A stretch of 44,119 nt of DNA from a bacterium. GTDB taxonomy: Bacteria > Patescibacteriota > Microgenomatia > Levybacterales > UBA12049. A model generated the notes under the pieces. That model saw only the letters and a list, made by a program, of their open reading frames with translations, made no database searches and had not been told where the DNA came from. Every line of letters starts with the position of its first letter. Within the stretch, counting starts at the first letter, position 1. Positions 3,055-42,499 of this stretch are shown here, one piece after another. The translations under genes were made by a program, and so were the position numbers. Where the stretch lies: positions 1 through 44,119 of the forward strand of contig JAJYHW010000085.1 of NCBI GenBank assembly GCA_021784535.1, in the 5' to 3' direction.

Positions 3055-3099
3055 ATTTGGGGACCGGTGAATAGATTTTAGGGAATAGAGTTAGAGATT

Positions 3100-3239
3100 G
3101 GACCGATTTTACAATTGAAGATGGAAATCACGGTGAAAATCCGTGGCTGTGCCGCAACTGTAAAGCCAGAAAACTTTTTTTCCCGCGCAGGAGCTTTTTT
3201 TAAGAATCCTTCTGTTTTGCGGAGCAAGAGAAGGATTTT
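3100..3239 (+). promoter_or_regulatory. Cobalamin (AdoCbl-type) riboswitch RS1, short form without a long P6 extension
   Basis: GGAAAT, then a 5-bp stem CACGG/CCGTG (3129-3145) closing a TGAAAAT loop, then GCTGTGCCGCAACTGTAAAGCCAGA. This matches the conserved GGUGAnAAUCC...GCxGxxCCGCAACUGUAA core and B12-box region. Downstream, a 9-bp hairpin (3205-3213 / 3229-3237) buries the GAAGGA Shine-Dalgarno of the ATG at 3240. Confidence 0.75.
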
Positions 3240-3616: not shown

Positions 3617-4186
3617 ATGAAAAATTCAAAATTACAAATAAAAGTGCAAAATATTATTAGTCCTTTTATAATCATTGCGTTTGCAATTATTTTGAGGTTG
3701 GTCCCGCACCCTCCTAACGTTGCGCCGATTGCAGCAATGGCACTTTTCGGCGGCGTGTACCTCAATAAAAAATACGCACTTATTGTCCCGATTATTGCTC
3801 TGTTTGTTTCAGATATCTTTTTGGGATTTTATTCTGAAATGATATTTGTTTATGGCAGTTTTCTTCTTACCGGATTGATAGGTCTCTGGCTTCGAAATCA
3901 TAAATCCTTCAGAAATGTCATTCTGGCAAGTAGTGGTTCTTCTATCATGTTTTTCCTTATCACCAATTTTGGTGTGTGGCTTATGAGTTCAATGTATGAT
4001 AAAACATTCAATGGCTTGCTGGAATCGTACGCGATGGGGTTACCGTTTTTTAGAAATACGCTGCTTGGAGATCTTGGATACGTCGGATTATTCTTCGGGA
4101 GCTACGAGCTCTTGTCATTATTTATCTTAAATCGTAAAACGCAAATATCAAAACTACATCTCAAATCTAAACATTTTAAGATTTGA
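3617..4186 (+). CDS. Six-TM membrane protein, ECF S-component-like; probable cobalamin transporter subunit
   Basis: About 6 hydrophobic helices. The RLVPHPPNVAPIAAMALFGG motif resembles solitary S-component/DUF6580-type proteins. The ATG at 3617 was chosen over 3578, which overlaps the upstream gene by 22 nt. The function is inferred from operon context only. Confidence 0.6.
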   Translation: MKNSKLQIKVQNIISPFIIIAFAIILRLVPHPPNVAPIAAMALFGGVYLNKKYALIVPIIALFVSDIFLGFYSEMIFVYGSFLLTGLIGLWLRNHKSFRNVILASSGSSIMFFLITNFGVWLMSSMYDKTFNGLLESYAMGLPFFRNTLLGDLGYVGLFFGSYELLSLFILNRKTQISKLHLKSKHFKI

Positions 4187-4223
4187 ATTGTCGGTTTATG
4201 ATTTGAATTTTGAGTTTTGAGAT
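4158..4223. repeat. Heptamer-built imperfect hairpin element
   Basis: Left arm ATCTCAAATCTAAACATT (4158-4175) pairs with AATTTTGAGTTTTGAGAT (4206-4223) at about 14 of 18 positions. The arms are phased 7-mers (GAATTTT/GAGTTTT/GAGATTC). The left arm encodes the last residues of the upstream ORF. Confidence 0.55.
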
Positions 4224-4229
4224 TCTACT

Positions 4230-4769
4230 ATGCCGATTTATACCCGTACTGGCGATAAAGGGAAAACGTCACTTTTTGACGGCACCCGTGTGTTGAAATC
4301 ACACAAGCGCGTTGAGACATATGGAACAATTGATGAGCTTAATAGTATTATTGGTGCTACCGTTGCCCATTTGAAAAATAATGAGAAGCAATTGAAAGTT
4401 GAATTGGAAAAGATTCAAAATGATCTTTTGGATATCGGCTCAGCGCTTGCAACGCCTCATCCGATGCCGGTTATTGGTTTGGAAAATCGTCCAAAAGAGT
4501 TTGAGAAATGTATTGATAATCTCACGCAAAAATTGCCGGAATTAAATGAATTTATTTTACCCGGTGGTGGCAAAGCAGGCTCATTCTTGCATGTCTGCCG
4601 AACGATTGCCAGGCGAGCTGAGCGGCAGCTGGTTGCATTGACACAGAAAGAAAAAGTAGATGAGGCAATTGTTATTTATCTCAATCGCTTGTCAGATCTG
4701 TTATTTACTATGGCGCGATATGTGAATTATATGGAGAAGAAGAAAGAGATTAAGTGGGTAAAGCGATAG
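4230..4769 (+). CDS. pduO: PduO-type ATP:cob(I)alamin adenosyltransferase
   Basis: N-terminus MPIYTRTGDKGKTSLFDG...ETYGTIDELNS and the later RRAER segment are characteristic of PduO-type ATR. 179 aa. Confidence 0.9.
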   Translation: MPIYTRTGDKGKTSLFDGTRVLKSHKRVETYGTIDELNSIIGATVAHLKNNEKQLKVELEKIQNDLLDIGSALATPHPMPVIGLENRPKEFEKCIDNLTQKLPELNEFILPGGGKAGSFLHVCRTIARRAERQLVALTQKEKVDEAIVIYLNRLSDLLFTMARYVNYMEKKKEIKWVKR

Positions 4770-4847
4770 ATGTAAGATGTAGGATTTAAGATGTAGACGT
4801 GAAATATAAAAAATCTTCTTAAATCTTACATCATAAATCTTAAATCT
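4770..4847. repeat. Heptamer-built hairpin element (ATGTAAG family)
   Basis: Left arm ATGTAAG ATGTAGG ATTTAAG ATGTAGA; right arm TAAATCT TACATCA TAAATCT TAAATCT. Positions 4776-4791 pair with 4817-4832 (16 bp including one G-T). It starts 1 nt after the pduO stop. Confidence 0.7.
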
Positions 4848-4854
4848 AATATTT

Positions 4855-4989
4855 TGGGTGAACTTAGTGAAATTCTAAGGCTGTGCCGCAACTGTAAAGC
4901 CAGATCCCCATCCCGATTAATTCGGGGAAAAACCTTCCGAGCAGAAGTTCCTTTTTTTGTGGACTCCTCGGATGACGAGGAGTTTTTTT
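4855..4989 (+). promoter_or_regulatory. Cobalamin riboswitch-like element RS2 with terminator / anti-SD expression platform
   Basis: GGGTGAA, then a 5-bp stem CTTAG/CTAAG (4863-4879) closing a TGAAATT loop, then a 26-nt core (4879-4904) identical to RS1 3145-3170. Downstream is an 8-bp hairpin ACTCCTCG/CGAGGAGT (4963-4983) followed by a T7 run. The 3' arm carries GAGGAG 7 nt before the ATG at 4990. Confidence 0.6.
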
Positions 4990-15036: not shown

Positions 15037-16002
15037 ATGTTCTCTCGGCAAAAAATTATTGTTTTCCAAAAACATATTCTTGATTGGTACCATGAAAATC
15101 AGCGCCCTCTCCCATGGCGTAAAACCCGGGACCCCTATTGTATTCTCATATCAGAAGTTATGTCTCAGCAGACGCAGCTTTCTCGTGTCATTCCAAAATA
15201 TGAAGCATGGATTAAGAAATTTTCAACTGTGCAAAGTTTGGCAAAAGCAAAAGTATCGGAAGTGTTGGCATATTGGAGTGGACTCGGTTATAACAGGCGA
15301 GCGCTTAATTTGCAAAAAGCTGCTCAGAAAATTGCGCAGGAATATAAAGGGGCTTTTCCACGAACAGAAAAAGAACTTATTGCACTACCTGGGATAGGAA
15401 AATACACAGCGCGGGCGATTCTTTGTTTTGCATTTGATCAACAAGTGGCTGTTGTGGATACCAATGTGAAGAAGGTGATACTGACACAATTAATTAAAAA
15501 CTCGAATGCCGAAGCACGAAATCCTAAACAAATTCGAAATAATAATTGTCAAAGAACAAAACATGTAGAATTTGGAATATTGAAAAATTCAGAAATTATT
15601 TCGAATTTTGGATTTCGAATTTTGGATTTGCCCAAAAACGATGAAACGGAGAGGACGGATTTAAGTGATAAAGAGATAAATGAGATCGCCCAACAACTGC
15701 TTCCAGCAGACAAAGCGTATGAATGGAATCAGGCGCTTATGGATTATGCAGCAACAGTATTGAAGAAAGAAAAAATTCCAATTCCTAAGCAATCAAAATT
15801 TCATGGATCCCATCGGTATTATCGTGGGCAAGTGTTAAAAGTATTATTACAGAAGAAAAAAATTTTGGTAAAGGGTTTGGGTCCATTAATAAAAAAGGAT
15901 TATACAGATTCAGAGGAAGAGTGGCTTCAGCAATTGATAGATGAATTGGTGCATGAAGGATTTGTTAAATATGAAAAAACCATTATTACCCTCGCTTCTT
16001 AA
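15037..16002 (+). CDS. HhH-GPD DNA glycosylase, MutY/EndoIII-like, without the 4Fe-4S cysteine loop and carrying an in-frame repeat insertion
   Basis: WYHENQRPLPWR, LISEVMSQQTQ, GLGYNRRA, LPGIGKYTA and VVDTNV all match the MutY N-terminal domain. The region after NQALMDY contains no cysteine. Confidence 0.8.
   Translation: MFSRQKIIVFQKHILDWYHENQRPLPWRKTRDPYCILISEVMSQQTQLSRVIPKYEAWIKKFSTVQSLAKAKVSEVLAYWSGLGYNRRALNLQKAAQKIAQEYKGAFPRTEKELIALPGIGKYTARAILCFAFDQQVAVVDTNVKKVILTQLIKNSNAEARNPKQIRNNNCQRTKHVEFGILKNSEIISNFGFRILDLPKNDETERTDLSDKEINEIAQQLLPADKAYEWNQALMDYAATVLKKEKIPIPKQSKFHGSHRYYRGQVLKVLLQKKKILVKGLGPLIKKDYTDSEEEWLQQLIDELVHEGFVKYEKTIITLAS
15517..15630. repeat. 114-nt palindromic heptamer element inserted in frame in the glycosylase gene
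   Basis: 15530-15543 pairs with 15595-15608 (14 bp) and 15517-15524 pairs with 15610-15617 (8 bp), with a 51-nt loop. The right arm contains ATTTCGAATTTTGG twice. The element starts on a codon boundary and is 38 codons long. Confidence 0.75.
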
Positions 16003-25662: not shown

Positions 25663-26076
25663 ATGATCGCGGTTTCCTCGCTATTGCTAAAACTTCTTCC
25701 CACCCAAATAGCCTATGCTCATTGCGACCTTCCTTGTGGTGTCTATGATCCTGCTCAAGCGAGAATAGAGGCGGAAAGCGTCATGAAAATCATGGAGAAA
25801 TACGCAGGTCTTCATGAAGAAGAACAAAAATGGCGAGCAGTCTTCATCAAGGAGCAACGGGCAGAACTAGTCAAACACCATCTTTGGGTTTTGTGGACTG
25901 ATTATTTCAAGCCGGAGCATCTGGAGAAATTTCCGCACTTGCATGATCTTTTCTGGCGTGCAACCAAACAAGCAGGAGAGGCGAAAAAATCTGTTGATCC
26001 GGCCGTGGGTCAAAAACTGCTTGATCTTATTGATGAAATAGATAAAATTTTTAAAGAAACAAAGGCCACAAAGTAA
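25663..26076 (+). CDS. sodN: Nickel superoxide dismutase precursor
   Basis: A 19-aa leader followed by the Ni-hook HCDLPCGVYDPAQARIEAESV. 137 aa. Confidence 0.92.
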   Translation: MIAVSSLLLKLLPTQIAYAHCDLPCGVYDPAQARIEAESVMKIMEKYAGLHEEEQKWRAVFIKEQRAELVKHHLWVLWTDYFKPEHLEKFPHLHDLFWRATKQAGEAKKSVDPAVGQKLLDLIDEIDKIFKETKATK

Positions 26077-26080
26077 TTTA

Positions 26081-26170
26081 CAATTTTCATTTCTCAATTT
26101 TCAATCAAATCAACAATGATGTAATTTTAAAACTTTGAGAAATTGAAAATTTATTAAAAATTGAAAATTT
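26081..26170. repeat. Heptamer-built hairpin element (AATTTYC family)
   Basis: Left arm AATTTTC ATTTCTC AATTTTC AATCAAA; right arm GAGAAAT TGAAAAT ...ATTGAAAATT. 26082-26097 pairs with 26135-26151 (16 bp with one bulge). Confidence 0.7.
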
Positions 26171-26174
26171 AAAA

Positions 26175-26501
26175 ATGTTTCAACAATTATTTCTTCTCCT
26201 CTCCCCTATTTATAAATATCAGATTTTCGGAAGTAGTATGCTGCCGACATTAAAGCCAGGAGATATGGTATTGGTAAATAGAATGAGCTATTTGTTTTTA
26301 TCACCAAAAATCAATGATATTGTCGCGGTTAAAGATCCACGGGAAGGCAAAGTACTGATAAAGCGGATTATGAAGATTGAAGGGAAGAGCTATTTTGTGC
26401 AAGGAGACAATAAAAACGCAAGCACAGATAGCAGGGTTTTTGGTATGATAGGAAGGATTAATATTATTGGGAAAGTTACTGATGTAAAATTTCCAATTTA
26501 A
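26175..26501 (+). CDS. sodX: S26-family signal-peptidase-like protease, NiSOD maturation protease
   Basis: GSSMLPTLKPGD (Ser), LIKRI (Lys) and GDNKNASTDSR. It lies immediately downstream of sodN. Confidence 0.85.
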   Translation: MFQQLFLLLSPIYKYQIFGSSMLPTLKPGDMVLVNRMSYLFLSPKINDIVAVKDPREGKVLIKRIMKIEGKSYFVQGDNKNASTDSRVFGMIGRINIIGKVTDVKFPI

Positions 26502-26597
26502 AATTTTCAATTTTCAATCAAGTCATAATGTTTCAATTTTTTAACATTAGATTATTGGAAATTCAATGAAAATTAGAAATTAAGAATTGAAAATTGT
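26486..26597. repeat. Heptamer-built hairpin element (AATTTYC family)
   Basis: AATTTCC AATTTAA AATTTTC AATTTTC AATCAAG ... GGAAATT CAATGAA AATTAGA AATTAAG AATTGAA AATTG, with an inner 7-bp stem TAATGTT/AACATTA. The left arm supplies the last codons (KFPI) and the stop of sodX. Confidence 0.7.
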
Positions 26598-27260: not shown

Positions 27261-28328
27261 TTATTTTTTCATCCTCAAATACAACCATCTCAGTTTATCT
27301 GCTACTTTGTAGCCTTGATACGCAAGGGGATTGATGACAAGATCATAACTGCCGATGAACTCGACATGTTCGGGGCCGAATTTCCTTTTAAAATCATGAA
27401 AGCCAAACCACGAATCTTTTGGGTCAGGCTCAGAACTCATCGCTCCCCACATGTCAAATTTTTTTAAGCCCAGTTTTTTTCCGAATCGGATACCCTCCCA
27501 CATGGCCAGATTTGAATGCATGACATTGCGATGCTCGTTGCTGGATGCGCCGTAGGGATAATACAAGGTGTCATGAAAGACAAAAAAAAGCAGCGCAGTC
27601 AGCACTTTTTTTTCATAAGTTGCCGTGAACAGGTGTGAGGTAAGTTTGCTGGGGTCGACATCATGTGAGAATGTATGCCATTGCAGTTCGTGATAGTGTC
27701 TGGTGTGAGCATAAAATTTTTGACGTGCTGTTGTCTCTTGCATCAGGCGCCAATATGCTTCAAATGCTTTTTCCGTGTTGTCTTCCTTGACTTCTACAGC
27801 ATGTTTTTTGGCAACTTTGATATTGTAACGTGCTTTCGGGTGCATGCGAGTCAGCAATTCATCTTCAGATTTTGTGAGATCCAGGACAAAGGTATATTTG
27901 GTAAAGAGTGGATGCGCGGCTGGAGGTAATTTCCAATTTCCGATTTCCAGTTTCCAATTTATTATTTTCCTGCTTCCTGCTTCCTGTTTGCTGTTTCTAA
28001 AGACATTTGGTTCCAGTTGAATGAAGATGCAGTTCTCCTGTTTGCCAATTTTATATAATTCATTTATCAATTGCTCATCAGGCATCGTTCCTTTTGGTAG
28101 ATAACCGATGGTAAAATCGGTCTTTGGCAATTTGTGAATGGTGAGTTGAAATCCTGAAATGAGTTTTAGTCCTGAGCTCGTCGAAGGATTTTCATCAAAA
28201 AAACCACTTCGGATTACCTTGATTCCTTCTTTCTCGCGGAATTCTCCCCATTCATAACTTTGGAGAGGATGAGTGACAATAGCGTTATATGCTATTTTTT
28301 GCTTGGAAGTAATAGGCCGGATGTCCAT
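27261..28328 (-). CDS. FemAB/FemX-family peptidoglycan interpeptide-bridge aminoacyltransferase
   Basis: Length and conserved blocks fit the family (QSYEWGEF, KARYNIKVAKK, YYPYGASS, LKKFDMWG). The ATG at 28328 is 6 nt downstream of TAGAAT. Confidence 0.8.
   Translation of the reverse strand: MDIRPITSKQKIAYNAIVTHPLQSYEWGEFREKEGIKVIRSGFFDENPSTSSGLKLISGFQLTIHKLPKTDFTIGYLPKGTMPDEQLINELYKIGKQENCIFIQLEPNVFRNSKQEAGSRKIINWKLEIGNWKLPPAAHPLFTKYTFVLDLTKSEDELLTRMHPKARYNIKVAKKHAVEVKEDNTEKAFEAYWRLMQETTARQKFYAHTRHYHELQWHTFSHDVDPSKLTSHLFTATYEKKVLTALLFFVFHDTLYYPYGASSNEHRNVMHSNLAMWEGIRFGKKLGLKKFDMWGAMSSEPDPKDSWFGFHDFKRKFGPEHVEFIGSYDLVINPLAYQGYKVADKLRWLYLRMKK
27928..27998. repeat. Pyrimidine-strand heptamer tract inside femX
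   Basis: AATTTCC AATTTCC GATTTCC AGTTTCC AATTTAT followed by ATTTTCC TGCTTCC TGCTTCC TGTTTGC TGTTTCT. It is translated on the minus strand as SKQEAGSRKIINWKLEIGNWKL. Confidence 0.7.
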
Positions 28329-28360: not shown

Positions 28361-30253
28361 TTACCAATCAGAAGACCGTTGCGTGATGAGATGTTCCGGT
28401 AGTTCCGTGACAAAACGTGAGACAGTATTGGCTGTCCGCTGTCCAAAAAAAAGCCTGCGTCTGGCATAGGTCAAGAAGAGTTTCTCCTTTGCCCTGGTCA
28501 TCCCCACATAGCAAAGCCGCCGTTCTTCTTCAAGTTCTGATCGATCCATAAGGGATCTTGCGTGTGGAAAAAGACCTTCTTCCATGCCTATGATAAAAAC
28601 GATGGGAAACTCAAGTCCTTTCGCGGCATGCAATGTCATAAGCGTTATGGCATTTTTCTTTTCACCGTTTCCCTGTTTGTCCGAGTGGTATTCCTGTTCG
28701 ACCAGTGAAACATTTTCAAGAAAATCCGTCAAATCAGGAAATGCAATAGCAACTGAACGGAGTTCTTTGATATTTTCCAGTCGCGTTCTGTCTTCTTCAA
28801 GCTTCTCATCGTAGAGTTCGAGATAATTTGTTGCTTTGATAATGCCATCAAGAAGGTCAATAGTTGTCATGCTGACCCTATCTTTTCCGGCAGGAAGGTT
28901 CCCGGCGCCTTTTGTATTTTCTGATTCCGGAGTCTTAGCCAGCTGGCGGATCTCCGAAATGACATTTTGTTGATATTCCAGAAATCTTTGCAGTCTCCCC
29001 TTGCCCAGCTTTTCGATTCTTTTGTATGAGATTGAATCTTTTGCATTGTTTATGACGCGCAAGTAGGCAAGAATGTCTTTAATCTCCTTTCTTTCGTAAA
29101 ATCTCGTGCCGCCGATAAGAAGATACGGCAAGCCATGATGAAGTAACGCTTCCTCGATGACACGGGATTGAGCATTGGTTCGATAGAGAACAGCGACTTG
29201 ATTGAGGCGTTTTAATCCAAGATTGGCGGCTGTTCTGATGATAAAATCCGCCTCATCCTGTTCGTTATCCGCTTCGTACAATTCGATTTCTTCACCATCG
29301 GGATTTTGGGTCCATAATTGCAGTATTGGATGGCTGGTATTTTTTGAAATAATCGTTGATGCGCCATCAAGGATTTTCTGCGTGGAACGATAATTTTGTG
29401 ACAATGAAAAGGTTTTTGTTCCATGAAAGTCATCTTTAAATCTGTTTAAGTTGCGGTAATCTGCTCCACGCCAGCTGTAAATACTCTGAGAGAAATCCCC
29501 AACCACACAAATATTCTGCAAGGCAGAATTTGCTCCGACTAAAAGTTTCGTTAAAACATATTGTGCTCTATTGGTGTCCTGGTATTCGTCAATCAGGATA
29601 TATTTGAAGGTCTCCTGATATTTCTTCAATACCTGATCGTGTTCGCGCAAAAGCTTGATTGTATGGAGAATCAGATCGTCAAAATCCAGCGCATCATTTT
29701 CCTTGAGGATTGTCTGATATATCGGATAAATTTTTGCAACAGTTTCCTGAAAATATCCTCTGGCAAAATTTTGATATTCAGTGGCGGTGATGATTTCATT
29801 TTTTGCTTGAGAAATTGTTGCGTGGACTGAATGGGGCTTAAAGTCTCTCGTTGAGATATCAAGCCGGCGCATGGCTTCCTTAATCGCATCGAGTTGATCT
29901 TGTGAATCATAAATAATAAAATTATGCGAGAAGCCAAGATGATGACTTTCTCGCCTGAGGATTTTGGCGCACATCGCATGGAACGTGGCGACGGTAGGAT
30001 TTGCTACATAAGGTTTGGGAGATAAGGAGTTAATAATTCTTCCTTTCATTTCGTTTGCGGCTTTATTGGTAAACGTTATACATAAAATGGTTGAAGGATC
30101 AATCCCTTTTTCCTCAATAAGATATTGCACTTTACGTGTAAGGACTCGGGTTTTCCCTGATCCTGCGCCGGCAAGAATAATCATCGGTCCATCAGTCGCG
30201 ATGACTGCTTTTTGTTGTTCGGCATTTAAATCCTTGAGTAAGTCTCCATTCAT
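28361..30253 (-). CDS. pcrA: UvrD/PcrA/Rep-family ATP-dependent DNA helicase
   Basis: AGAGSGKT, DEYQDTN, VGDFSQSIYSWRGA, TLHAAKGLEF and VGMTRAK. Confidence 0.9.
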   Translation of the reverse strand: MNGDLLKDLNAEQQKAVIATDGPMIILAGAGSGKTRVLTRKVQYLIEEKGIDPSTILCITFTNKAANEMKGRIINSLSPKPYVANPTVATFHAMCAKILRRESHHLGFSHNFIIYDSQDQLDAIKEAMRRLDISTRDFKPHSVHATISQAKNEIITATEYQNFARGYFQETVAKIYPIYQTILKENDALDFDDLILHTIKLLREHDQVLKKYQETFKYILIDEYQDTNRAQYVLTKLLVGANSALQNICVVGDFSQSIYSWRGADYRNLNRFKDDFHGTKTFSLSQNYRSTQKILDGASTIISKNTSHPILQLWTQNPDGEEIELYEADNEQDEADFIIRTAANLGLKRLNQVAVLYRTNAQSRVIEEALLHHGLPYLLIGGTRFYERKEIKDILAYLRVINNAKDSISYKRIEKLGKGRLQRFLEYQQNVISEIRQLAKTPESENTKGAGNLPAGKDRVSMTTIDLLDGIIKATNYLELYDEKLEEDRTRLENIKELRSVAIAFPDLTDFLENVSLVEQEYHSDKQGNGEKKNAITLMTLHAAKGLEFPIVFIIGMEEGLFPHARSLMDRSELEEERRLCYVGMTRAKEKLFLTYARRRLFFGQRTANTVSRFVTELPEHLITQRSSDW

Positions 30254-30266
30254 AGAGTATAATAAT

Positions 30267-30357
30267 TAGATGTATGATGTAAGATTTATGATTTAAGAAA
30301 AGAAGTGAGGAATTATTGTTTAATAATTTATATCTTACATCTTAAATCTTATATCTT
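30267..30357. repeat. Heptamer-built hairpin element (ATGTAAG/AAGATTT family)
   Basis: Left arm TAGATGT ATGATGT AAGATTT ATGATTT; right arm ATATCTT ACATCTT AAATCTT ATATCTT. 30276-30286 pairs with 30332-30342. An inner stem AATTATT/AATAATT is also present. Confidence 0.65.
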
Positions 30358-30387
30358 AAGACAACACCCATTGTAGCATATTGCCAT

Positions 30388-31092
30388 ATGAAAAAACTTT
30401 TTATTGTCGGGAATTGGAAATCAAATAAAACAATTGCGGAAGCAAAAACATGGCTTCTTGAAATTTCCAATTTCCAATTTCCAATTTCTGATAAACGGGA
30501 AATTATCATTTGTCCGCCATTTTTGCTTATTCCTGAGATGAAAACGTTTATTGATGAGTACAAACTTCCCCTTAAGCTTGGCGTGCAGAATATTTCTCCG
30601 TTTGGCGAAGGAGCATATACCGGTGAGGTATCTGCCAGGACAGCGCAGGAATTTGTCACTCATGCATTAGTCGGACACTCGGAACGGAGACACTATTTTC
30701 ATGAGACCGATGAAGATGTCCTGGCAAAAATAAAACAGCTTTTGCGCTATGATTTAACTCCTGTTTTGTGTATCAGCGACATGAAACAATTGGCTTTTTA
30801 TTTAAAAGAAGATGATGTGATTACTGCCAATGCAGGGAAGATTATTTTTGTCTACGAACCGCCAGATGCGATCAGCGGCGGCGGAGCGTTTCATGCGATA
30901 GATTTAGATACTATTGATGCAAATACTGCTGAGATCAGTAAAATGATAGGCAAAGAAGTAGTTACTCTTTATGGCGGAAGTGTCAATCCAGAAAATGCTG
31001 CGTTGATTTTTGGCTTAGAACACGTTTCTGGAGGTCTACCCGGACAGGCAAGTTTGGATGCTGAAACATTTGCACAAATAATTCATGGATAA
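30388..31092 (+). CDS. tpiA: Triosephosphate isomerase
   Basis: GNWKSN, VGHSERR, YEPPDAI and YGGSV. Confidence 0.92.
   Translation: MKKLFIVGNWKSNKTIAEAKTWLLEISNFQFPISDKREIIICPPFLLIPEMKTFIDEYKLPLKLGVQNISPFGEGAYTGEVSARTAQEFVTHALVGHSERRHYFHETDEDVLAKIKQLLRYDLTPVLCISDMKQLAFYLKEDDVITANAGKIIFVYEPPDAISGGGAFHAIDLDTIDANTAEISKMIGKEVVTLYGGSVNPENAALIFGLEHVSGGLPGQASLDAETFAQIIHG
30462..30489. repeat. AATTTCC x3 plus AATTTCT tandem heptamers inside tpiA
   Basis: Perfectly phased 7-mers, translated as EISNFQFPIS in the loop after the GNWK strand. Confidence 0.75.
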
Positions 31093-41222: not shown

Positions 41223-42499
41223 CTTAGCAACCGTGCTGCTTTTTCACCTAATTCGACTGCATAATTTGTTCCCCTGTCCCAGGGATAGACCTGTTCAATG
41301 TTGGCAAGAAATACATTAGAGAGCGGCGTTGTCATAGCTGGAATTATACGCGAATAATTGATTGGAATGATCGGCTGAGCAAAAGGAACGGTGAATTTTT
41401 TTAACCCGATAAGATTTTTTTTATAATCCGGGTTTAATTTTTTGAGAAAGGGATCAAAAGTTTTCAATAGCGCTTCTTCGCTCAAAGTGAAATACGGGTG
41501 ATCATGTGGTAAATAGTGACCAAGATAGACAAGGTGCTCATTATTATAATGTTCACTCTTTATAAAATTGGTATGCTCGACAATTGCCAGAAGCGGTGCT
41601 TTGGTGTCGCAAATGCTGAGCCAATAGGTATTATCGGTTAAAAAAGGTTTCTTAAGCCGCATGATTACCACAATAGCTCCGAGCCCTTTAAGATTCAGTA
41701 GTGATTTTTTGTATGGTTCAGGAAGTTGTGGTGCGAGTTTCAAAAACGCAAAAGACGGGAGCGTAACAATAGCTTTATCGTAATTTCCGATTTCCAATTT
41801 CAAATTCCCAATTTTTCTGTATTTGATCTGAGGTTTATTGTTTGAGGAGATCTCGGTTATTTCAGTATTATAATAAATTTTTCCTCCTTTTGCTTCGATA
41901 ATACGAGCGAGATGGTTGGTAAATCTTAAAAAGCCTCCTTCCGGATAAGCAAGACGGGTTGTTCTTTTGGCAATGCGTCCCCAGAACCATGCGAGAGAAA
42001 TGTTTTCTGCATCTGCTCCGAATTTGCCAACGAGCAGCGGTTTCCATAGTAGCTCATACGCTTTTTTGCCAACTGTTTTTTTTAAGTATGCTGCTGTGGT
42101 AAAGCCCTCAAGTGGTTTCCAGAAAGGATTAAAGCGAAGCGGGGTAAGAGCGAGCGCCATCTGTATTCTTTCAAATACGGAAAGTTTCTGAAACGTCAAT
42201 AATGTGAACGGAGAGTCCATTTGATAAATTTTGCCATCTATCAAGTGGGATGTTTTGGGTCTTGTAATAATAACCGGGAAATCCAGTTCTTTTGCAAGAG
42301 CCAACACTGTTTTATCACTGGTAAACCAATGATGATAAAATGCCTCCAGCGTCCAGTCCCAACCAGTTTCCTGATAGCCAATTGCCAGGCCGCCGGGTTG
42401 TGTATCTTTTTCAAAGAGAGTGACGTCGTGCCCGTCTTTGACTAATTGATATGCCGCGGAAAGCCCGGTAAAGCCGGCTCCGATAATTGCTACTCTCAT
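41195..42499 (-). CDS. NAD(P)/FAD-dependent oxidoreductase (HemY/CrtI/amine-oxidase-like fold)
   Basis: MRVAIIGAGFTGLSAAYQL...LFEKDTQPGGLA dinucleotide-binding motif. 434 aa. Confidence 0.8.
   Translation of the reverse strand: MRVAIIGAGFTGLSAAYQLVKDGHDVTLFEKDTQPGGLAIGYQETGWDWTLEAFYHHWFTSDKTVLALAKELDFPVIITRPKTSHLIDGKIYQMDSPFTLLTFQKLSVFERIQMALALTPLRFNPFWKPLEGFTTAAYLKKTVGKKAYELLWKPLLVGKFGADAENISLAWFWGRIAKRTTRLAYPEGGFLRFTNHLARIIEAKGGKIYYNTEITEISSNNKPQIKYRKIGNLKLEIGNYDKAIVTLPSFAFLKLAPQLPEPYKKSLLNLKGLGAIVVIMRLKKPFLTDNTYWLSICDTKAPLLAIVEHTNFIKSEHYNNEHLVYLGHYLPHDHPYFTLSEEALLKTFDPFLKKLNPDYKKNLIGLKKFTVPFAQPIIPINYSRIIPAMTTPLSNVFLANIEQVYPWDRGTNYAVELGEKAARLLSKSILNDQC
41782..41816. repeat. AATTTCC-family heptamer tract inside the oxidoreductase gene
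   Basis: AATTTCC GATTTCC AATTTCA AATTCCC AATTTTT, translated on the minus strand as KIGNLKLEIGNY. Confidence 0.7.

Follow-up and report, generated by a model that had tools for sequence, protein, structure and literature searches.

The element and its host gene

The stretch of DNA under study, called the window throughout, comprises the 44,119 nucleotides (nt) of contig JAJYHW010000085.1 (assembly GCA_021784535.1; Levybacterales, Patescibacteriota) and carries a gene for a predicted adenine DNA glycosylase of the MutYX type, whose open reading frame (ORF) hosts a palindromic repeat element. The element belongs to a dispersed family of hairpins with arms built of CGAAATC heptads, members of which lie between genes and also occupy unrelated proteins in frame. 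It is probably a non-autonomous copy of this repeat, tolerated as a translated passenger in a permissive loop of the enzyme. The coordinates of all features at the locus are collected in Table 1.

A Pfam scan of the 321 amino acids (aa) of the host protein yields PF00730 (HhH-GPD) and PF00633 (HHH), and the top sequence match in the PDB, at about 29% identity, is 8UUC, the clusterless adenine glycosylase "MutYX" of Eggerthella sp., which has a distinct C-terminal X domain (PMC12631127). The host shares with 8UUC the HhH-GPD domain, the X domain and the Gln/Arg pair that recognises 8-oxoguanine (8-oxoG), and both are devoid of the four cluster cysteines; the host translation has no cysteine beyond residue 177, hence the 4Fe-4S cysteine motif is lacking. 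It differs from 8UUC by some 50 extra residues between the helix of the catalytic Asp and the next one. An earlier note, made from the sequence of the window, had described the host as MutY-like; by homology and model, the protein is a MutYX, clusterless and with an X domain, rather than a canonical MutY, and its 8-oxoG:A (OG:A) activity is a prediction.

Concerning the residues that are key for catalysis and lesion recognition, the family alignment of the host protein shows E40 and D141 to be invariant; the catalytic role of the Glu is described in work on MutY (10.64898/2026.01.22.701053). R260 is also invariant and Q252 nearly so. The two are the counterparts of the 8-oxoG-recognising Arg209 and Gln201 of MutYX, aligning to the R and Q in the QSTFEGSRR segment of 8UUC.

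An AlphaFold 2 (AF2) model, obtained with 33 homologues as input, reaches a mean predicted local distance difference test (pLDDT) score of 85.6, and its best structural match in the PDB is again 8UUC, with a target-normalised TM-score of 0.86 and a root-mean-square deviation of 2.6 Å; the match covers the whole chain. In the model the catalytic-Asp helix reaches residue 160, the following confident helix begins at 211, and pLDDT falls below 50 solely at residues 167-204, inside the insert. The insert is thus predicted to be compatible with the host fold and to form a disordered loop, much as had been suggested when the segment was proposed to be tolerated at the protein surface and a structure prediction was recommended to place it.

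Eight contigs, which come from several samples, encode the identical 321-aa protein, and an assembly artefact is thereby ruled out for the insert. Two strain variants have the same length and keep the frame, one of them with a single amino-acid change within the element. With an intact ORF, conserved E40, D141, Q252 and R260, a confident predicted fold and variants that keep the frame, the gene looks functional, that is, it would encode a MutYX and not be a pseudogene, the case in which the earlier note would have abandoned its proposal. That the locus is a decaying pseudogene or an assembly chimera is hardly credible. What speaks for it is one NCBI assembly (GCA_027424635.1) with an 87-aa gene call at the locus, which made us suspect a frameshift variant from this 87-aa cluster member. 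The call is due to a stretch of N in that record, which covers the right arm of the element and the next 30 nt (L174:2866-2920, contig DAIBXE010000009.1) and has exactly the length to be expected; the remainder of that locus is identical to the window. The N run is an example of how such a repeat degrades assembly or annotation.

Extent and anatomy of the element

The extent of the element was set with an nhmmer profile of the half-arms of the family, which matches positions 15494-15553 on the forward and 15634-15582 on the reverse strand. The earlier note had recognised a 114-nt palindrome at 15517-15630, inserted in frame; the palindrome and its frame were recovered, the limits were not, as the true extent is about 141 nt. 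The repeat search retrieved the inverted repeat that the note had reported, with its 14-bp stem, 8-bp outer stem and 51-nt loop, and likewise the 14-nt unit that occurs twice in the right arm. Position 15517 is the first base of codon R161 and the 114 nt are free of stops in the host frame, so that the start on a codon boundary and the open frame were also correctly read, as was the peptide that the note had given; the other five frames of this stretch all hold stops. The whole element is 47 codons long and begins at the second base of a codon. Tandem CGAAATC and the 14-mer of the window are stop-free in all six frames. The stretch folds more stably than most of 200 shuffles, both as RNA (z = -2.74) and as DNA (z = -3.45), with 1/200 shuffles equally stable in each case.

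A different layout was considered, namely a nested 31-aa insert within an ancestral, decayed CGTC-type repetitive extragenic palindromic (REP) sequence shared with the orthologue P0003. It was rejected because the 23 nt upstream belong to the same element and the P0003 insert is dissimilar. The loop codons that follow the element at 15635-15666 have no significant similarity to the other inserts described below.

Searches for known functional signals were negative. Rfam gives no family match to the element, only generic long-hairpin microRNA and tmRNA matches, all below threshold (12 bits for tmRNA, where the gathering score is 47). The element was also negative for promoter-like and terminator-like sites, the Pfam scan of the host protein shows no intein domain, and the insert peptide carries no intein motifs. 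These results bear on the idea that the segment is excised after transcription or translation, in the manner of an intron or an intein, to leave a mature enzyme without the insert. The stable hairpin formed by the segment would suit such a process, which is nevertheless highly improbable: there is no match to intron or ribozyme families and no sign of an intein, all in-frame copies seen, across many hosts, keep an open frame, which removal of the segment would make needless, and the junctions vary between orthologues.

Table 1. Features of the palindromic element and of its host gene (positions in the window).
Feature	Position	Strand	Basis or remark
Predicted MutYX-type clusterless adenine DNA glycosylase gene (321 aa), host of the element	15037-16002	+	ORF translation; Pfam HhH-GPD and HHH; 8UUC; AF2 model
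Codon of catalytic Glu E40 (in SEVMSQQTQ)	15154-15156	+	invariant column, family alignment
Codon of catalytic Asp D141 (in VDTN)	15457-15459	+	invariant column, family alignment; position from sequence
Palindromic repeat element, about 141 nt, CGAAATC-heptad hairpin family	15494-15634	+	nhmmer half-arm profile; L081 alignment; peptide homology
Left arm (AAACTCGAATGCCGAAGCACGAAATCCTAAACAAATTCGAAAT...)	15494-15553	+	nhmmer E = 3.7e-11; 41/48 identical to L081 intergenic copy
Right arm, inverted copy of the arm consensus, with 7-nt-periodic units GGATTTC/GAATTTT	15582-15634	-	nhmmer E = 5.3e-9; period-7 and period-14 arrays
Outer arms with CGAAATCC/GGATTTCG	15517-15528 / 15606-15617		12 nt, 92% complementary
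Inner stem, 5' half (AAATTCGAAATAAT)	15530-15543	+	14/14 complementary to 15595-15608
Loop of 51 nt between inner stems	15544-15594	+	inverted-repeat search; weakly similar to loops of other copies
Inner stem, 3' half (ATTATTTCGAATTT)	15595-15608	+	pairs with 15530-15543
Tandem duplication of 14-mer ATTTCGAATTTTGG, 2 exact copies (array 15598-15629)	15598-15625	+	repeat search
Further loop codons (about PKNDETERTDLS) between the element and the conserved DKEI helix	15635-15666	+	alignment and length comparison; possibly the remnant of an older insert

A dispersed family of heptad hairpins

When the 114 nt were compared by BLAST with all the DNA fetched, a match of 22 nt emerged in L081, the contig that carries the closest orthologue (64% aa identity in local alignment, 71% over the aligned columns of the family alignment). 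The copy in L081 (13648-13771) is intergenic, with an ABC ATPase gene on one side and its permease gene on the other; the equivalent spacer in the window is empty and 14 nt long. Window positions 15485-15665 and the reverse complement of L081:13640-13780 share a local alignment of about 120 nt that scores 69, vs 18.3 +/- 2.7 for shuffles (maximum 29), the best block, which starts at window position 15491, being 41/48 identical. At the MutYX site itself, the sequences of the nearest orthologues (P0003, P0002, P0010 and others) have no significant similarity to the window or the L081 element. This likeness to another locus, together with the unlikeness to the orthologous site, is the pattern of a dispersed repeat.

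Local alignment and the nhmmer half-arm profile place DNA copies in L081, L167, L168 (two), L169, L171 and L173 in addition to the window. Copies other than that of the window occur on contigs of very different gene content. Six-frame translations of the window and L081 copies, used as queries, led to two proteins with copies in frame, a PIF1-like helicase (P0121) and a cysteine desulfurase (P0122). Residues 148-192 of the helicase match the window insert without gaps at 26/45 positions, and its segment 148-198 stands in place of 9 residues of human PIF1, i.e. a clean insertion of about 42 aa. The desulfurase has two copies, at 175-214 and 261-297, neither of which has a counterpart in NFS1. 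The DNA that encodes these segments forms hairpins with a common arm consensus, AAATCCGAAATCCGAAGCACGAAATCCGAAACAAATYCRAAAT.

A profile built from four insert peptides retrieved 48 proteins from the indexed database, nearly all of them "hypothetical proteins" of 35-79 aa devoid of domains. Three of these ORFs, whose contigs were fetched, are intergenic, with co-directional or convergent neighbours, and span long near-perfect hairpins; the one in L169 folds at -109.6 kcal/mol. To judge by these matches, many such tiny "hypothetical proteins" are ORFs called on copies of the element. An exhaustive HMMER search of 1.84 billion representatives found the element peptide in 588 proteins at E <= 1e-3. 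Among the best 143 of these, 25 are proteins of at least 250 aa with an internal copy, always in the same reading frame. Pfam identifies the hosts as TsaD, MnmA, glutamate dehydrogenase, a MiaB-like radical-SAM enzyme, a class-V aminotransferase, Ser/Thr kinases, glycosyltransferases, an O-antigen ligase and others, and the in-frame copies share the peptide pattern "..RNPKQIQN..SNFGFRASNL".

The breadth of the family bears on whether the palindrome could be local in origin, through slippage and inverted duplication of loop sequence, instead of being a dispersed copy. The 14-nt tandem duplication is evidently local, and heptad arrays are common in the window, also within other ORFs. For the element as a whole this origin is very unlikely and largely refuted, given the strong DNA and peptide similarity to copies at unrelated loci of unrelated genomes and the lack of any similarity to the element at the orthologous site of the nearest relatives.

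Exact and short-motif searches disclosed no further copies in the window or in the candidate phyla radiation (CPR) loci except that in L081, the plasmid collection held no match to the element, and in the literature searched its DNA and peptide strings matched unrelated primers only.

Some copies have neighbours that merit mention. In P0190, a protein of 1423 aa with MerR HTH domains and an intein splicing domain at 1012-1288, a copy of the element lies at 1290-1340, right after the intein domain. The contig with the doubly inserted cysteine desulfurase, L168, contains a group I intron (2396-2626; Rfam RF00028, 93.5 bits) that adjoins two tRNA genes, as well as more long hairpins at 3094-3163 and 4886-4952.

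Insertions in the MutYX loop of orthologues

The orthologue set comprises 107 close homologues, of which those with a name are labelled Patescibacteria or Levyibacteriota, and the metagenome-contig scan provided the DNA of at least about 28 close orthologue loci. As outgroup we took distant relatives, at 30-40% identity, among the matches listed in the genome-contig scan. The distance from DTNxxK to AYEWNQA ranges from 24 to 79 aa in the 107 close homologues, with a median of 47, and the window has the longest; it is 31 aa in 8UUC and, among the matches listed, mostly 32 aa in the outgroup MutYX loci, with 30-35 in all but one. The earlier note had set the spacing after the VDTN motif of the window against only about 20-25 residues in MutY/EndoIII homologues, and the lengthened spacer is evident when its 79 aa are set against the 24 of the shortest orthologues and the 31 of 8UUC. 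The alignment of orthologues, which it had proposed as a check, shows a lineage-specific indel at the insert site, where the nearest orthologues carry unrelated sequence.

Occupation of this loop appears to be recurrent across the clade and not a one-off event of the window. At least five unrelated types of palindrome, the window family included, are found at the MutYX loop of the orthologues. The other types are CGTC-tagged REP dimers with "RH...MT" peptides (L088, L089, L095 and L106, with a solo unit in L104); an AT-rich "ELGIMNYELG...NSLFVIHDS" type, for which DNA was available from L096 only, type and palindromy being deduced from back-translation of the peptide; a "NSENSE...LILRDSD" type; and a G/C-rich "PLPPPKEGR...RGGDKGVG" type (L109). 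Folding of the inserts was scored by RNAfold against shuffles, a self-reverse-complement score having been dropped because its strict mismatch penalty and disregard of G-U pairs missed obvious hairpins. DNA was available for 14 distinct inserts of 20 codons or more, and 8 of these fold significantly better than shuffles (p <= 0.025), the z values being -7.3 for L109, -6.2 for L088, -4.9 for L095 and -4.0 for L098.

Insert junctions and reading frames vary between orthologues, and in the neighbour-joining order of the core protein empty sites and different insert types are interleaved. Both features argue for repeated independent gains, losses or replacements in what would be a permissive loop, rather than for one nucleotide-specific target.

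The recurrence of hairpins of unlike sequence in the same loop of many orthologues, together with the perfect inner stem of the window, would also suit a segment under selection, either a cis-acting hairpin (in mRNA processing, translational pausing or stability, or as single-stranded DNA) or an adaptive peptide, which is kept to modulate MutYX. Intragenic REPs are often found in replication and repair genes (PMC3733652), and a PIF1 helicase and a 5'-3' exonuclease are among the other hosts seen. We nevertheless regard such a role as unlikely. Some orthologues are without any insert and 6 of the 14 inserts are without detectable folding, which makes the hairpin appear dispensable; these observations, together with the lack of a promoter-like or terminator-like site and of a known RNA family in the element, disfavour a regulatory function. 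Most hosts of the window's element family are unrelated housekeeping enzymes rather than repair proteins, and the conserved DNA arms account for the conservation of the peptide.

REP units of the same kind occur in frame in further genes of these contigs. In L104 one of them forms a clean insertion of 22 aa in a 5'-3' exonuclease. In L095 a CGTC-type REP dimer (3977-4044, in ORF 3866-4687) is translated in the N-terminal region of a TrpC homologue; comparison with solved TrpC structures reveals no net length change at the dimer, which suggests that the dimer replaced native sequence instead of simply being inserted. A second site in MutYX lies after LPWR (window residue 28; alignment columns 43-50), where P0011, P0036, P0046 and P0100 have an insertion of 8 aa (e.g. 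DIPFDASI).

Persistence and movement of the element

The reading we favour is that a REP-like or MITE-like non-autonomous repeat (MITE, miniature inverted-repeat transposable element), with heptad arms around a variable loop, became lodged in the loop that follows the catalytic-Asp helix. Since the heptad arms are stop-free in six frames and the loop of this copy is open in one, the element would be read through. Its translation, which we infer from the open frame, would add about 47, probably disordered, residues and would leave the fold as well as the catalytic and 8-oxoG-recognition residues intact. The element would most likely be a passenger and not a functional module, its neutrality likewise being an assumption, and the loop of the orthologues may have captured other palindromic repeats time and again because insertions there survive selection. 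Candidate routes for its movement are hairpin-directed single-strand transposition, or template switching or recombination between copies.

Several observations weigh against this reading. The 44-kb window holds a single copy and the roughly 20 kb available from the nearest relative one related copy, the loop sequence is poorly conserved among copies, and no transposase domain was seen among the called genes of the fetched loci. No target-site duplication was recognised at the inspected copies, and clear direct repeats flanking the copies of the window, L169, L171 and L173 were not apparent on inspection, where the exact ends of the element are uncertain. Moreover, the inner stem is perfect (14/14) and bases specific to the window are mirrored in both arms, which could reflect selection on the hairpin instead of neutrality. 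The same perfection could also stem from correction of a quasi-palindrome by template switching, an established type of replication error.

It is also conceivable, if quite improbable, that the MutYX loop is an active landing pad, with hairpin repeats being directed to it or selectively kept there, and perhaps in other replication and repair genes as well. If so, structured DNA or RNA, or a flexible peptide, would tune the expression or activity of the enzyme, and the load of hairpin repeats in the genome would be linked to its own repair machinery.

Relation to known palindromic repeats

Judged by analogy, the window element would work like the Rickettsia palindromic elements (RPEs; Ogata et al. 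2000, 2002) and like intragenic REPs. RPEs, as summarised in PMC10969869, are dispersed palindromes with intergenic and in-frame copies, which use one constant element frame in many unrelated housekeeping proteins and are placed where the fold tolerates them. The family described here resembles them in all these respects, in the last one by AF2 prediction, so that the analogy with RPEs drawn in the earlier note from a single locus now holds for a whole dispersed family, whose copies lie between genes as well as in frame in many unrelated proteins. It differs in lineage, the relatives of the host gene being labelled Patescibacteria, in the iterated-heptad arms of the window element, and in that several unrelated palindrome families occupy the loop of one gene in different MutYX orthologues.

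CGTC/GTAG REPs are stem-loops of 20-40 bp that bear the tag at one end and have an 8-9-bp stem starting AT and a loop of 4-5 nt (Di Nocera et al. 2013, PMC3733652). They often form inverted dimers and are usually intergenic, sometimes intragenic, then encoding 20-80 extra residues (PMC3733652). This description is fitted by the inserts in L088, L089, L095, L104 and L106, in which a (C)GTC tag is followed by an 8-9-bp stem beginning AT. The window element is likewise a stem-loop repeat with intergenic and intragenic copies, but its ends are untagged, its arms measure about 50-60 nt and its loop 51 nt, so it belongs to a different family. As it has no CGTC/GTAG tag and the RPEs were compared by behaviour only, we describe it as working alike and claim no membership of either group.

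Bacterial MITEs are also known with in-frame fusions, as in Coxiella QMITE1, ERIC and BOX (PMC10969869, PMC5896051). The window element is similarly small, non-autonomous and multi-copy, with imperfect terminal inverted repeats. No target-site duplication or parent insertion sequence with matching ends was found for it in the fetched loci, the ends of the element being uncertain.

Other heptad repeats in the window

The window contains further heptad repeats that are distinct in sequence. Two intergenic hairpins of about 90 nt share AGATGTA/TCTTACA heptad arms; the one at 4768-4855 follows the stop of ORF 4230-4769, and that at 30265-30358 lies between the divergent ORFs 28361-30253 (reverse strand) and 30388-31092 (forward strand). 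Another two, of about 100 nt and with AATTTTC-heptad arms, flank the small ORF 26175-26501 at positions 26075-26177 and 26485-26596; they align over their full length, with about two-thirds of the columns identical.

Short in-frame heptad arrays (AATTTCC, about 4 copies; TTCCTGC, about 4 copies) are found at 30462-30488, 27928-27997 and 41782-41814. Their hosts are a triosephosphate isomerase (EISNFQFPISD), a FemAB-family protein (KQEAGSRKIINWKLEIGNWKL) and an amine-oxidase-like flavoprotein (IGNLKLEIGN). The triosephosphate isomerase presumably shows no obvious net length change relative to the E. coli sequence. It should be noted that AATTTCC and TTCCTGC, which occur inside ORFs, are stop-free in six frames, while AATTTTC and AGATGTA, confined to the intergenic hairpins, contain stops. 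The presence of stop-free heptads in ORFs is consistent with a selection filter on what persists within genes.

Implications

In-frame palindromic repeats are best known from Rickettsia, and intragenic REPs have also been reported from several other bacteria (PMC10969869, PMC3733652); by the accounts given there, intragenic REP and RPE elements as such are already established. The present data add that a different and very large family, with 588 protein clusters besides the copies called as tiny ORFs, behaves alike in genome-reduced uncultured bacteria and beyond. What goes further than the initial observation at this locus is how large and widespread the family is, and that unrelated palindromes recurrently occupy one MutYX loop.

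With regard to annotation, the family accounts for many tiny "hypothetical proteins", as well as for odd low-complexity inserts in conserved enzymes of metagenome-assembled genomes. The tolerance of the loop offers a natural experiment on which protein loops accept 20-60 extra residues. Finally, with at least five unrelated palindromes, the MutYX loop would be a tractable system for the underlying mechanism, i.e. a selection filter as opposed to targeting.

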